Shown here: one piece after another, positions 58,745 to 62,135 of the stretch
Position numbering within the stretch: the first letter of the stretch is position 1
How the letters are laid out: the number at the start of each line of letters is the position of its first letter
DNA from: a virus
Taxonomy: Duplodnaviria > Caudoviricetes
Strand: one strand, 5' to 3'
Virus record (IMG/VR): IMGVR_UViG_3300037400_003271
Span: 1-64,000 of that record
Length of the DNA stretch: 64,000 bases
Program-made: the position numbers and the translations under genes
Notes under the pieces: generated by a model
What the model saw: the letters and a program-made list of their open reading frames with translations, nothing else
Told to the model about the DNA's origin: nothing
Databases searched by the model: none

Positions 58745-59067
58745 TTTCATTGGATGATTTTCAGCGGGGCGCTCTGGAGACGGCCGTCTATCCGGAGCAG
58801 CATCGGGTGATCTACCCGGCCCTTGGTCTCGCGGGCGAGGCCGGCGAAGTGGCGGACAAGGTAAAGAAGGTCCTGAGGGGCGACGGCCCGCTGGACGAGG
58901 AGCGGAAGAAGGCGATAGCGCAGGAGATCGGCGACGTGCTGTGGTACTGCGCGGTGCTGGCCAGCGACCTCGGGTTCGGCCTCGAGGAGATCGGGTCGAT
59001 GAACTACGCGAAGCTGCACAGCCGGAAGGAGCGCGGGATGCTCGGAGGGGACGGAGATGATAGATAG
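58741..59067 (+). CDS. MazG-like nucleotide pyrophosphohydrolase
   Basis: LGLAGEAGEVADKVKK...EIGDVLWY ExxE/ExxD motif. Confidence 0.85.
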   Translation: MISLDDFQRGALETAVYPEQHRVIYPALGLAGEAGEVADKVKKVLRGDGPLDEERKKAIAQEIGDVLWYCAVLASDLGFGLEEIGSMNYAKLHSRKERGMLGGDGDDR

Positions 59068-59094
59068 TATATAGTGTTTAATTCTTAATAGTTA

Positions 59095-59355
59095 ATGACA
59101 ATGGAAACAAAGTATTCGATTTGCGACAAGGTCGCGTTTTTCAACACGACGGAGCGTAAGGTGCTGACCGCGGAGGTCAAGGGTATCCAGATTGTTCCGA
59201 CTGGGATCAGCAAGAACGAGAAGGGTGAGAACGTGCTGGACGGCTACGTCGTCCTGTACCAGACCTTCGACGGCCCGATCCTCGCGGAGTCCGAGTGTTT
59301 CGACAGCGAGGAGGCGTGCAAGGCGTTCTACCGGGACTTCTTCAACAAGGAGTAG
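59095..59355 (+). CDS. Hypothetical SH3-like protein
   Basis: KYSICDKVAF pattern; codon-biased. Confidence 0.55.
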   Translation: MTMETKYSICDKVAFFNTTERKVLTAEVKGIQIVPTGISKNEKGENVLDGYVVLYQTFDGPILAESECFDSEEACKAFYRDFFNKE

Positions 59356-59522
59356 TAGCATCGGGTTTCCGGCGTTAAGGCGGGGGTGCCCGGCCGCGCA
59401 CACCGTCAAGGGTAGGTCCGGAATATGGCAGGCGCCAGCCCGAGGATAGTTTGTGTGGCGTCGGCCGGATCAAAGCGGGCCGGAATAAAGGACATACCGC
59501 AATTCCGGGCAGCGGCAGACAG

Positions 59523-59604
59523 AGTGTGGTAGCTCAGTGGACAGAGCGCCGCCCCAAGCGCATGGGGATCAACGGAGACGCGGGTTCGAATCCCGTCCAC
59601 GCAC
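59523..59604 (+). tRNA. tRNA-like element 1 with enlarged non-canonical anticodon arm
   Basis: 6-bp acceptor GTGTGG/CCACGC, D arm GCTC-AGTGGACA-GAGC, T arm GCGGG-TTCGAAT-CCCGT; 27-nt anticodon region. Confidence 0.7.
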
Positions 59605-59622
59605 AGAGAGATCTTTGAAATT

Positions 59623-59976
59623 GGGGCTGGTTTGGTTTAGACTTGCATGAGGCAGGTACTGACTTACGCACTGGGCGGTGATCCCAGTTGAATAAAGCAC
59701 CGAAAACACAAAAGGCAAGAATTTCATCAGCAGGATGGCGGGCAAGGCTCGTGCTCTGCGCGAAAAGGTCGCCGGGATCTTCGCTCCCCGCGAGATTGAA
59801 GAGTTCGCTCTGGCGATTGCCTAATTTCTCGGCTTAGGAAAACCGAGTGGTGGAGATGGGCAGTGAACTTCTGTCCTGACCGTCCTGGAGCCGGACAAAA
59901 ATGGCTATCCTAAGCGTATGAACAAAGTCAGTATGGGCACATGTATAGGACGAGGGTTCGACTCCCTCCAGCTCCA
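59623..59976 (+). ncRNA. ssrA: tmRNA, complete, with a 36-codon tag frame (59714-59824)
   Basis: GGGGCTG/CAGCTCC acceptor with G3:U70 and A discriminator, T arm GAGGG-TTCGACT-CCCTC, helix TACTGACTT/AAGTCAGTA, PK1 CTGGG/CCCAG + CGGTG/CACCG, 11-nt spacer to GGC resume codon. Confidence 0.92.
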
Positions 59977-60001
59977 CAAAGGCAGTGAGGTATGCCCTAT
60001 A

Positions 60002-60159
60002 GGGAACAACATTGGACTTGCCGTACAATAGTGCTTAGGAATCAAGTGCTATGCCCAATGCCCGAAGAACCTGGTAGCGCAGGTCGCTGCAAACATATCG
60101 TCCCGCCGTGAGGCGCGAGCGCAGGCGCGAGTACATAGTGTCTTAGTGTATTAGTTCCC
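60002..60159 (+). ncRNA. Unidentified multi-stem structured RNA
   Basis: GGGAAC/GTTCCC closing stem, CATTGG/CCAATG, ATAGTGCTT/AAGTGCTAT, ACCTG/CAGGT, CGCC-GTGA-GGCG. Confidence 0.5.
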
Positions 60160-60181
60160 CGGGCCGCCTGACCGGGATTCT

Positions 60182-60253
60182 GGGAGGGTAGCTCAGAGGT
60201 AGAGCGGGCGCCGAGGGGCGCGAAGGCCGGCGGTCCGAATCCGCCCCCTTCCA
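60182..60253 (+). tRNA. tRNA-like element 2: Ala-type acceptor, no canonical anticodon loop
   Basis: GGGAGGG/CCCTTCC-A with G3:U70; D arm GCTC/GAGC; T arm GGCGG-TCCGAAT-CCGCC; anticodon arm pairs only as GCGCC-GAGG-GGCGC. Confidence 0.7.
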
Positions 60254-60351
60254 CACAGGAAGCGCAGTGATGCGCGGTGTAAACGGAGGATTTGCCATAT
60301 AGTGAACTGGATAGTTATTGCTGATGGCCGTGTTCTTCCGTGCGGCCACAT

Positions 60352-60426
60352 AGCGGGGTGGTGAACCGGTAACACGCGAAGCCCCATGTACGCATCGAGA
60401 AGCAAGTTCGATTCTTGCCCCCGCAA
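60352..60426 (+). tRNA. tRNA-like element 3 with extended anticodon arm (CAT in a 9-nt loop)
   Basis: GCGGGG/CCCCGC acceptor, T arm GCAAG-TTCGATT-CTTGC, D stem GTG/CAC; 21-nt anticodon arm. Confidence 0.65.
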
Positions 60427-60544
60427 CTCTATGAAACGGACAGCAGCATACGGCGTCAGCAGGACGCGGGATGCCAGGGGCGTGTCTTCTGGAGATATAT
60501 CCCGAAGAAACCGGGCAGGATTTGTAAGTTTGGAATAGTTTTTG

Positions 60545-60552
60545 TATGTTTG
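60545..60552 (+). promoter_or_regulatory. Bacteroidota -7 box upstream of the primase gene
   Basis: TATGTTTG, with TTTG motifs upstream. Confidence 0.45.
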
Positions 60553-60671
60553 TAATCCGCGTCTATGGGTACGGCGCAGAAGAAAATTCGAGCCAGAGTC
60601 GTAGGGGAAGTACCCACCTTTCTTCGGAGAGGTCCCCTCGGCCCTGGCTTTTTGTTTAAAAACCGCAAGTT

Positions 60672-62135
60672 TTGAGCAAGAAGAATGATGTCATAGACTA
60701 CCTCATTTCGGTCCTGGAGCCGGAGATTTCCGGCAAGGGGGCGACTGACGGCAAATTGGACAAGCTCAAGGAGGCAGAGCTCTGCGACGCCTTCGAGAGT
60801 TATGTCTGTGGCAGGCCGGACGATACGGGGTGCGACTTTTTCAAGGTCGCGGAGGGTGATGTCTTGTTCATGTTCAACGGGAAGTGGTACGAGAAGATTG
60901 ACGATGTGCGCCTGCGCTTCATCGTGAAGGAGGTGCTTAGGAAATGCCACGTGGGTTCGATCTATATCCGTAACTCTGCGTCGAAGATCGCCGACGAGTG
61001 CAAGGAGACGCTCCTTTCATGCGAATGGTGTTTCTTCGAGCCGGACCGCAGGTATGTGGTGTTCCGGAACGGTGTTCTGGATATGGAGACGAGGCGCTTT
61101 TATGAACACGACATCAAGTACAAGACGGACATAGTCCTGAATTTCAACTACCTATCGAACGAGAGGAGCGGCCTGTGGGACCGTCTCATCTCGCAGACGG
61201 TTCCGGACGAGGGTATGCGCGGCGCGATGCAGCAGTTCTGCGGCGCCATGCTCGCGGACCGGAAGAAGTTCAAGATCGAGTACATGCTGATGCTGGTCGG
61301 TAGCGGCCGGAATGGCAAGTCGGTGGTTACCGACGCCATCGCGAACGTGTTCGGAGACGATCTGGTGAGTTCGTACAGCCCGGAGCAGCTCTTCGGGAAC
61401 ACGGGCCATAGCCTGTACAACCTCGCGGACATCAACGGAAAGTTGGCGAACATCTGCGACGATCTGAAGAACAAGGAATTCTCCGGAGGCGAGTTCAAGC
61501 AATTCATCTCCGGGCACAAGTTCCAGGCGCGGCACATCTACGGCCGCCCGTTCGTGGTCAGCAAGATCCCTCTGATGGTGTGCTGCATGAACGAGATTCC
61601 TCCGACCACGGACGATACTATGGGCCACTACCGCCGGCTCCTGCCGATCCTCTGCCCGAACCAGGTGGCGGAGAAGGACGTGGACTACGAGCTGTCGGAC
61701 AAGTTGGCGACGGATGACAACAAGGCGGCCATCTTCAACTGGCTCCTCGACGGCTACAAGGCGTTCGTGGAGAACAAGGGCCGCATCGAAATCAGCGACA
61801 GCATCAAGAATATCCGCGAGGACATCAAGGCCGACGCGAACTCCGCCCGGCAGTGGATCCGAGAGATGGGATACACTCCCGTCGCCGTGCGCGATCCGAA
61901 CGACCCTCGCTGGAAGCCTATCAACGAGTGGATGCGCGAGTACATCGATTGGTGCCGCGAGTGCTCCGAGAACGCGAAGACGGCCAAGGCAGTCGGCTCC
62001 GTGCTGAAGGACCTCGGGTTTGCCAGCGAGAAGCGCAGGAGCACCACTTGGTATTGCATCGGGAGGAAGGCCGAAGAGAATGTTGTGTCTACCGACCTCC
62101 CCGGCGAGGATGGTAAGGACGATCTTCCGTTCTGA
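60672..62135 (+). CDS. D5-like/P4-family primase-helicase (SF3 ATPase)
   Basis: D5-N-like region (VVFRNGVLDME), Walker A GSGRNGKS, Walker B ICDD, motif C CMNEIP; C-terminal DDLPF. Confidence 0.88.
   Translation: MSKKNDVIDYLISVLEPEISGKGATDGKLDKLKEAELCDAFESYVCGRPDDTGCDFFKVAEGDVLFMFNGKWYEKIDDVRLRFIVKEVLRKCHVGSIYIRNSASKIADECKETLLSCEWCFFEPDRRYVVFRNGVLDMETRRFYEHDIKYKTDIVLNFNYLSNERSGLWDRLISQTVPDEGMRGAMQQFCGAMLADRKKFKIEYMLMLVGSGRNGKSVVTDAIANVFGDDLVSSYSPEQLFGNTGHSLYNLADINGKLANICDDLKNKEFSGGEFKQFISGHKFQARHIYGRPFVVSKIPLMVCCMNEIPPTTDDTMGHYRRLLPILCPNQVAEKDVDYELSDKLATDDNKAAIFNWLLDGYKAFVENKGRIEISDSIKNIREDIKADANSARQWIREMGYTPVAVRDPNDPRWKPINEWMREYIDWCRECSENAKTAKAVGSVLKDLGFASEKRRSTTWYCIGRKAEENVVSTDLPGEDGKDDLPF

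Follow-up and report, generated by a model that had tools for sequence, protein, structure and literature searches.

The 64,000-nucleotide stretch of virus DNA analysed here (the window) comes from the IMG/VR phage genome IMGVR_UViG_3300037400_003271, which is 72,852 bp long and has direct terminal repeats; it covers the initial 64 kb of that genome. The phage is of the rumen type. Toward the end of the window, in the plus-strand early/replication arm of the genome, lies an island of seven RNA elements (59356-60430), all encoded on one strand within 1.1 kb. The order is element A, tRNA-like element 1, a one-piece transfer-messenger RNA (tmRNA), RNA B, tRNA-like element 2, RNA C and tRNA-like element 3, with gaps of 2, 18, 5, 5, 7 and 10 nt between successive elements. 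This order and the coordinates had been proposed in the initial annotation of the DNA, and they hold when examined with Rfam, ARAGORN and folding. The island was also said to be free of any credible open reading frame (ORF), and this is borne out: the longest ORF on either strand is 77 aa, and the insertions and deletions found in the island of related phages (16, 3 and 1 nt) disregard the reading frames. Rfam, searched at E<=10 over 58900-61000, gave nothing besides the tmRNA and two tRNA matches.

Related loci were collected with the helicase gene located 3' of the island as the anchor, together with conserved DNA words, which gave about 30 distinct contigs from IMG/VR and the JGI metagenomes. 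No relative was found among the INPHARED phage genomes. The most informative relatives are L052, L053, L002, L003 and L055. The helicase of L052 is 95% identical to that of the window and its entire island can be aligned at 86% identity; the corresponding values for L053 are 85% and 71%. The island is modular. The tmRNA is missing from L003 and L055, and the content of modules differs among close relatives.

The tRNA-like elements

The first tRNA-like element (59523-59604, plus strand) scores 41.1 bits as a tRNA in Rfam and has a cloverleaf as its minimum free energy (MFE) structure. Its D and T arms are normal, there is an A:A mismatch at 1:72, and the anticodon arm is an extended, bulged helix of 8 bp with a 6-nt loop. 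tRNA-like element 2 (60182-60254, plus strand) scores 43.6 bits (match 60182-60253), and its MFE cloverleaf accounts for 62% of the ensemble. It has a perfect 7-bp acceptor stem with G3:U70 and A73, a D arm, and a T arm whose loop, TCCGAAT, is unusual in having C at position 55. Its anticodon arm is a 5-bp stem capped by a tetraloop. ARAGORN reports both elements as 'tRNA-???' with two-base 'anticodons'. The third element (60352-60426, plus strand) is called by neither Rfam nor ARAGORN and was recognized by an in-house scan for the acceptor/T-arm elbow and by folding. It consists of a 6-bp acceptor stem, again with A:A at 1:72, a D arm that has a 3-bp stem and GG in its loop, and a canonical T arm; its anticodon region has a weak 3-bp stem and a long loop that form no stable arm. 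All three elements possess the acceptor, D and T arms, the G18G19 pair of residues and the TPsiC-type T loop of a canonical decoding tRNA (RF00005), and none has the 5-bp stem, 7-nt loop, U33 and three-base anticodon. The description of these as tRNA-like elements that retain their acceptor, D and T arms, with the anticodon arm broken in three different ways, is therefore accurate according to Rfam, ARAGORN and the predicted folds.

A fourth tRNA-like element is found beyond the window, at genome positions 66632-66749 (L073:2733-2850). A 67-nt region replaces its anticodon arm and variable loop, and it stops 1 nt before the start codon of a superfamily 2 (SF2) helicase. The whole genome contains these four tRNA-like elements and no canonical tRNA.

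The genome also carries a gene for an RtcB RNA ligase (68792-69985; L073:4893-6086; Pfam 6.2e-62), located 8 kb 3' of the island and 2 kb beyond the fourth tRNA-like element. RtcB is the tRNA-splicing ligase of archaea and animals, and ARAGORN, run in the intron mode, proposes short 'introns' in several members of the clade. The elements might accordingly be intron-containing tRNAs that are converted into decoding tRNAs by splicing, with the phage RtcB as the ligase. The chance of this is very slight. The arm of tRNA-like element 2 is of normal length and leaves nothing to remove, and no removal of 10 nt gives tRNA-like element 1 a 5-bp stem with a 7-nt loop. Neither a splicing endonuclease nor a bulge-helix-bulge motif was found. 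The exon junctions proposed by ARAGORN create mismatched stems, and its intron mode finds no introns in the window. The spliced-tRNA explanation was rejected on the sequence, for removal of the inserts fails to restore a canonical anticodon stem-loop.

Comparison with L052 bears directly on what is being preserved. tRNA-like element 1 differs from its L052 counterpart at 7 of 83 positions, and none of the differences breaks a base pair. Four of the changes compensate each other in pairs, once in the D stem and once in the anticodon helix, and the remaining three are in unpaired positions. When substitutions were placed at random in 200,000 simulated trials, 1.2% of the trials broke no pair and 0.02% gave two compensated pairs as well (P=1.9e-4). 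The L052 copy of tRNA-like element 2 has an identical acceptor stem, including G3:U70 and A73, one T-stem pair altered on both sides to U:G, and A at position 8. Its anticodon arm is again a 5-bp stem with a tetraloop, the sequence of which is unrelated to that in the window. In tRNA-like element 3, the L052 copy lacks 16 nt, which comprise the entire 'anticodon' insert; a 4-nt direct repeat flanks the deletion, and the remainder of the element is identical.

The same slot, on the same strand, is occupied across the clade by about 20 distinct non-canonical tRNA shapes and about 8 canonical tRNAs (Thr, two Ser, four Leu and Met). The anticodon arms of the non-canonical shapes have loops of 3, 4, 6, 8 or 15 nt, a G33, or inserts of 30-70 nt, or are deleted completely. 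The acceptor and T stems, on the other hand, covary freely over about 28 distinct elements. In one subgroup of the clade, the elements share the basal part of the anticodon stem and a variable region of the form GAGAY, with the distal part of the arm hypervariable. Taken together, these comparisons show that the acceptor/T/D 'top half' is the part being kept by selection and that, within the tRNA shapes, freedom to vary is limited to the anticodon arm.

The same data bear on whether the elements are merely decaying pseudo-tRNAs, the functionless remnants of a former tRNA array. Canonical tRNAs at the same positions in relatives would be expected in that case, and so would the odd T loop (C55) of tRNA-like element 2, the A8 of its L052 copy and the variation of module content among close relatives. 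Against this, the acceptor, D and T stems contain no broken pair and show compensatory changes, about 20 distinct non-canonical elements have kept their top halves intact across phages that share only 43-50% helicase identity, and the genome retains four such elements in the company of no canonical tRNA. Decay is therefore an improbable explanation. Recent random decay in particular is ruled out, because the top halves are intact throughout the clade while the arms vary, and because of the compensated pairs. The initial annotation had judged that the three broken arms do not look like random decay, and the compensatory changes and the clade-wide pattern support this. It had also taken normal anticodon loops in close relatives as the mark of recent decay; the slot of tRNA-like element 2 holds a canonical tRNA-Thr(UGU) in L053 and L002, and the L052 copies of tRNA-like elements 2 and 3 are non-canonical.

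The hypervariable inserts could themselves be the functional part. The tRNA body would then be a scaffold that provides processing and stability, and the insert in place of the anticodon arm would be the payload, for example an antisense or protein-binding hairpin. Inserts of 15-60 nt do fold as extended hairpins in many members of the clade and in the fourth element of the genome, and one short motif recurs in three unrelated inserts. The 'payloads' of the window, however, consist of one tetraloop, one 6-nt loop and one weak loop, the last of which is deleted in L052; the inserts are not conserved between lineages, and no target was identified. Little probability is given to this explanation. 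The recurring motif is CATGTAC or its complement, present at 60386-60392 of the window, L003:5779-5785 and L066:3357-3363, in the variable inserts of otherwise unrelated tRNA-like elements, and its recurrence may be due to chance.

The RNAs between the tRNA shapes

Element A (59362-59520, plus strand), always the first RNA of the array, is a multi-helix RNA of about 160 nt. A covariance model, R1, built from six sequences matches 14 loci of the clade with E values from 1e-6 to 1e-37, and a pattern scan combined with R1 located the element in five further contigs. In the alignment, 87% of the cells are paired compared to 31-48% when the partners are slid, although the alignment was fitted to the model, which favours the structure. 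Compensatory changes are found in 25 of the 34 pairs, and the junction nucleotides are invariant. No Rfam family matches the region 59345-59530 at E<=10. These comparisons make element A a well-supported new family of structured RNA. Resemblances to the P4 region of RNase P and to a T-box, both noticed by eye, were rejected, as they have no statistical support and the topology differs.

The 3' context of element A was found to be of two kinds. Without exception in the helicase clade, a tRNA, a tRNA-like element or a tmRNA begins within 0-25 nt of its 3' end (at least 13 contigs). L137 (5075-5248, minus strand) has no tRNA-like element at this place, and only a short hairpin of the GAAA type separates element A from the tmRNA; the same short hairpin precedes the tRNA-like elements of L003, L055, L065 and L066. 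In phages of a different type, represented by L112:4828-4996 (minus strand), L125:7036-7195 and L135:3640-3797, the next feature after element A is an intrinsic terminator, made up of a hairpin with a T run, and genes for HU-like and Erf-like recombination proteins come after the terminator. The L112 contig, 64 kb long, was binned in a metagenome-assembled genome (MAG) of the Paludibacteraceae from roe-deer rumen. Since element A ends either at a tRNA shape or at a terminator, the 5' end of the tRNA shape takes the place of the terminator. Element A, a family of Bacteroidales-type phages, lends itself well to studies of structure and function.

The tmRNA (59623-59979, plus strand) matches Rfam RF00023 along model positions 1-374 with 67.9 bits (gathering score 47, E 2.6e-24). 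In its tRNA-like domain the acceptor strand GGGGCUG pairs with CAGCUCC, which creates a G3:U70 pair, and the T arm is canonical. The tag frame, 59714-59824, comprises 36 codons, ends in ...FALAIA and is closed by a TAA stop. The assignment is secured by the full-length score, by the G3:U70 tRNA-like domain and by a tag that is conserved as a coding sequence and has a hydrophobic, Ala-rich tail. The tag differs from that of L053 by 8 synonymous and 12 non-synonymous codon changes, and homologous tags are present in L066 and L137, both of which ARAGORN calls as tmRNA loci. In the relatives the tags are 29-36 residues long, with a K-x-R-x-L-R core and the Ala-rich tail in common. A tag of 36 codons is unusually long for a tmRNA, and the conservation of a 29-36-residue tag shows that these phages invest in altering ribosome rescue.

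RNA B (59980-60181, plus strand) aligns with homologues, four in number, and consists of a domain, B1, and further hairpins. B1 occupies 59982-60090 (109 nt) and is closed by a covarying 6-bp helix; its inner hairpins covary as well. On the 3' side of B1 are a hairpin with a GUGA loop, then an AT-rich stretch, and finally a hairpin (60158-60176) that immediately precedes tRNA-like element 2. The AT-rich motif at 60135-60155 is local and is not a signal repeated across the genome. In the initial annotation this region was described as a 158-nt multi-stem RNA. It is indeed multi-stemmed, but its core is a 109-nt domain with one closing helix, to which hairpins are added. L002 retains only B1, with tRNA-Thr directly after it. 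RNAalifold predicts 20 pairs, 6 of which have compensatory changes, in two independent lineages only. An exact-word scan of IMG/VR for RNA B gave chance matches only, which confines it to four contigs. The comparisons define RNA B as a new structured RNA family that is narrower than A. Covariation across related phage loci, which had been named as a check on the RNAs of the island, is thus strong for element A and present for RNA B, in the latter case within those two lineages.

RNA C (60255-60343, plus strand) had been described as a three-way junction. Such a junction is not predicted; the fold (MFE -31.1 kcal/mol, z -2.57) consists of two hairpins, a 5-bp hairpin with a GNRA loop at 60262-60275 and a long irregular hairpin at 60283-60341. 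RNA C is 96% identical in L052, and the single change in the loop, from GUGA to GCGA, preserves the GNRA motif.

Proposed processing of the island

The arrangement of the elements suggests, and with moderate confidence we favour, that the island is a co-transcribed operon of non-coding RNAs which RNase P and RNase Z separate from one another by cleaving at the tRNA shapes. RNase P cuts the 5' end of a tRNA, and RNase Z cuts after the discriminator base where the CCA is not encoded. The whole island would be transcribed as a single precursor, because the elements are only 2-18 nt apart and neither a -7 box nor a terminator-like site was found between them. The plus strand has no TAnnTTTG box between 57405 and 60525, and the sigma-70 promoter/terminator scan, itself uninformative, found no terminator-like site inside the island. 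The host RNase P would then cut at the 5' end of each tRNA-like element and of the tRNA-like domain of the tmRNA. Cutting by RNase Z after each discriminator base is expected because an encoded CCA is absent from every tRNA-shaped element of the island. The cuts would release element A, the tmRNA, RNA B and RNA C as discrete RNAs. Hairpins, often with GNRA loops, begin 5-10 nt beyond the 3' ends of the tRNA shapes and may protect the newly formed 5' ends.

According to this mechanism, the tRNA-like elements would descend from tRNA genes that lost decoding and kept the acceptor, T-arm and elbow shape for the enzymes, leaving the anticodon arm free to shrink, grow or vanish. The interchange of canonical tRNAs and mimics in one slot fits a role for which only the shared top half is needed, and the position of a tRNA-like element next to element A and the tmRNA is kept in relatives. 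What the comparisons show directly are the elements and their packing, the selection on the top half, the variability of the anticodon arm and the two kinds of 3' context in which element A occurs; the co-transcription, the cuts and any function of A, B and C are inferred. The initial annotation had proposed two mechanisms for the tRNA shapes. Processing punctuation gains comparative support from the packing, the slots and the context of element A, the last being the most telling, whereas a decoy role has no direct support.

Several observations weigh against the processing mechanism. The anticodon helices of tRNA-like elements 1 and 2 are held as stable stems by compensatory change, which punctuation alone does not explain, although folding of the cloverleaf may require them. 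The tmRNA has an RNase P site of its own, so that tRNA-like element 1 is not strictly needed. The promoter scan covered the sigma-70-type and Bacteroidota-type consensus only, and the comparisons among close relatives use 1-3 sequences.

Selection on the entire cloverleaf, including a stable anticodon helix, speaks for a widened version of the decoy role, in which the tRNA-like elements would act in trans as stable, non-decoding mimics that titrate or distract a host factor which reads the tRNA body. The candidate targets are a tRNA-directed defence nuclease, an aminoacyl-tRNA synthetase, EF-Tu, the CCA-adding enzyme and SmpB. tRNA-like element 2 bears the alanine identity set G3:U70 and A73, which is conserved in L052, and the phage RtcB, as an RNA repair ligase, suggests encounters with RNA-cutting defences, if only circumstantially. 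Anticodon nucleases read the anticodon loop, and this loop is absent here, being replaced by a tetraloop or deleted; in L052, tRNA-like element 3 is without the entire arm. Phage tRNAs that counter anticodon nucleases are known, and they too are phage genes of the tRNA type with an anticodon loop unlike that of the host; in the published cases (PMC10264068; PMC11464382; PMC11555353) they are decoding tRNAs with resistant loops which replace cleaved host tRNAs, not mimics devoid of the loop. tRNA-like elements 1, 2 and 3, having no anticodon, cannot serve as such replacements. Moreover, canonical tRNAs and very different mimics swap in one slot, so that no single target is mimicked, and neither a defence nor an anti-defence gene was found adjacent to the island with Pfam and PHROG. 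Action in trans is therefore considered unlikely, and so is a further extension of it. In this extension the mimics, one of which is predicted to accept alanine, would have hypervariable arms adapted to host factors that act on tRNA; together with the long-tag tmRNA and with element A, as a ribozyme or as a protein- or ligand-binding RNA, they would form an RNA-only module that takes over or protects host translation. The 'all-RNA counter-defence system' put forward in the initial annotation could not be established, the sole link to defence being the circumstantial one of RtcB 8 kb downstream.

Relation to known systems

Release of RNAs at tRNA shapes, the process favoured here for the island, has its closest known counterpart in the mitochondrial tRNA-punctuation model and in the t-elements of plant mitochondria, at which RNase P and RNase Z cleave (Forner et al. 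2007, PMC1920247). As in the island, t-elements and the tRNAs of mitochondrial punctuation are found at transcript borders, and non-canonical tRNA-like folds with a conserved T arm occur among them; a tRNA-like fold with an intact acceptor/T stack stands at the borders of other RNAs in the island as well. The t-elements are organellar and flank mRNAs, whereas the array described here belongs to a phage, separates non-coding RNAs (the tmRNA, A, B and C) and has cuts that are predicted.

Among phages, the closest arrangement is the tRNA cluster of T4, which is co-transcribed, is processed by the host RNase P, and holds the stable RNA species 1 and 2 of unknown function. Both are phage tRNA arrays containing small stable RNAs. 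The tRNAs of T4 decode, however, whereas no tRNA shape of the island does; the island also includes a tmRNA, and the RNAs between its tRNA shapes are unrelated. In murine gammaherpesvirus 68, the tRNA-miRNA-encoded RNAs (TMERs) are non-aminoacylated tRNA-like units joined to structured RNAs that are released by tRNase Z. They resemble the island in being viral tRNA-like units with structured RNAs downstream, and differ from it in being eukaryotic and driven by RNA polymerase III, with pre-miRNA hairpins as the payload.

Structured RNAs of phages have also been described in the vicinity of tRNA genes. ROOL and GOLLD are RNAs of unknown function from phages and rumen samples that are often found beside tRNA genes (PMC5737381; bioRxiv 10.1101/2024.12.08.627333). 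They measure about 580-800 nt, in contrast to the 90-160 nt of A, B and C, for which the Rfam search of 58900-61000 at E<=10 gave no relevant match to ROOL, GOLLD or any other family. Theta ribozymes, which are minimal ribozymes of the hepatitis delta virus (HDV)-like type, are located beside the tRNAs of gut phages and have been proposed to help in the formation of tRNA ends (PMC10879173). They are likewise small structured RNAs directly adjoining phage tRNAs; the island has no match to any HDV-like family in Rfam at E<=10, a search made with no dedicated theta-ribozyme descriptor. A survey of structured RNAs in IMG/VR mentions 'tRNA or tRNA-like' candidates in general terms only (PMC10690425), and a literature search found no paper on non-decoding tRNA shapes that separate non-coding RNAs in phages.

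If the cuts are confirmed, the island would be a clear case in a bacterial virus of tRNA punctuation extending over an entire non-coding RNA operon. The many 'tRNA-???' calls with impossible anticodon loops in phage genomes may then be processing signals and not broken genes, and both tRNA annotation and arguments from codon usage would be affected for phages.

Genomic setting

The genes 5' of the island encode an HNH endonuclease, a MazG-like pyrophosphatase and a small conserved protein of 86 aa. The ORF of the latter (59095-59355, plus strand) immediately precedes the island, and its homologues are located directly 5' of element A in 15 related loci, without exception in this clade. The protein matches no Pfam or PHROG family. 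Its AlphaFold model (predicted local distance difference test score, pLDDT, 94.7) is an SH3/Tudor-like barrel with a C-terminal helix, and a fold search against the PDB gave only weak matches to Tudor and chromo barrels (template modelling score, TM, about 0.45), from which no function was assigned. An RNA-binding role is possible.

The region on the 3' side of the island, 60540-60671 (plus strand), is strongly conserved and aligns in all members of the clade, with a -7 box of the Bacteroidota type (TAnnTTTG), a long hairpin and, after it, a T run. The sequence of the outer helix of the hairpin varies among loci, and its CUUCGG-containing core is conserved. A conserved 16-mer follows the T run, at the TTG start codon of the helicase gene. 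TAnnTTTG boxes are present at 60525 and 60545. This region is probably the end of the RNA unit (a terminator), the leader of the helicase gene, possibly a regulated one, or both. The helicase gene itself (60672-62135, plus strand) encodes a D5-like primase/helicase (Pfam DUF5906 and D5_N; PHROG DNA primase, 6.9e-57).

The surroundings of the island also vary in gene content. Two close relatives, L052 (2244-3344) and L055 (1880-2590), each have an inserted gene for a C5 cytosine DNA methylase that separates the RNA island from the helicase gene, and the window is without it; the region is a hot spot for accessory genes. In L052, the one of these two that was compared in this respect, the space that separates the HNH gene from the small ORF (587-782) cannot accommodate the MazG gene that is found there in the window.

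The Bacteroidota -7 motif TAnnTTTG occurs 31 times in the window, compared to the 17.5 occurrences expected, and none of 100 shuffled sequences reaches 31. This enrichment is consistent with a Bacteroidota host and, along with the single contig binned in a MAG, hints at a host of the Bacteroidales.

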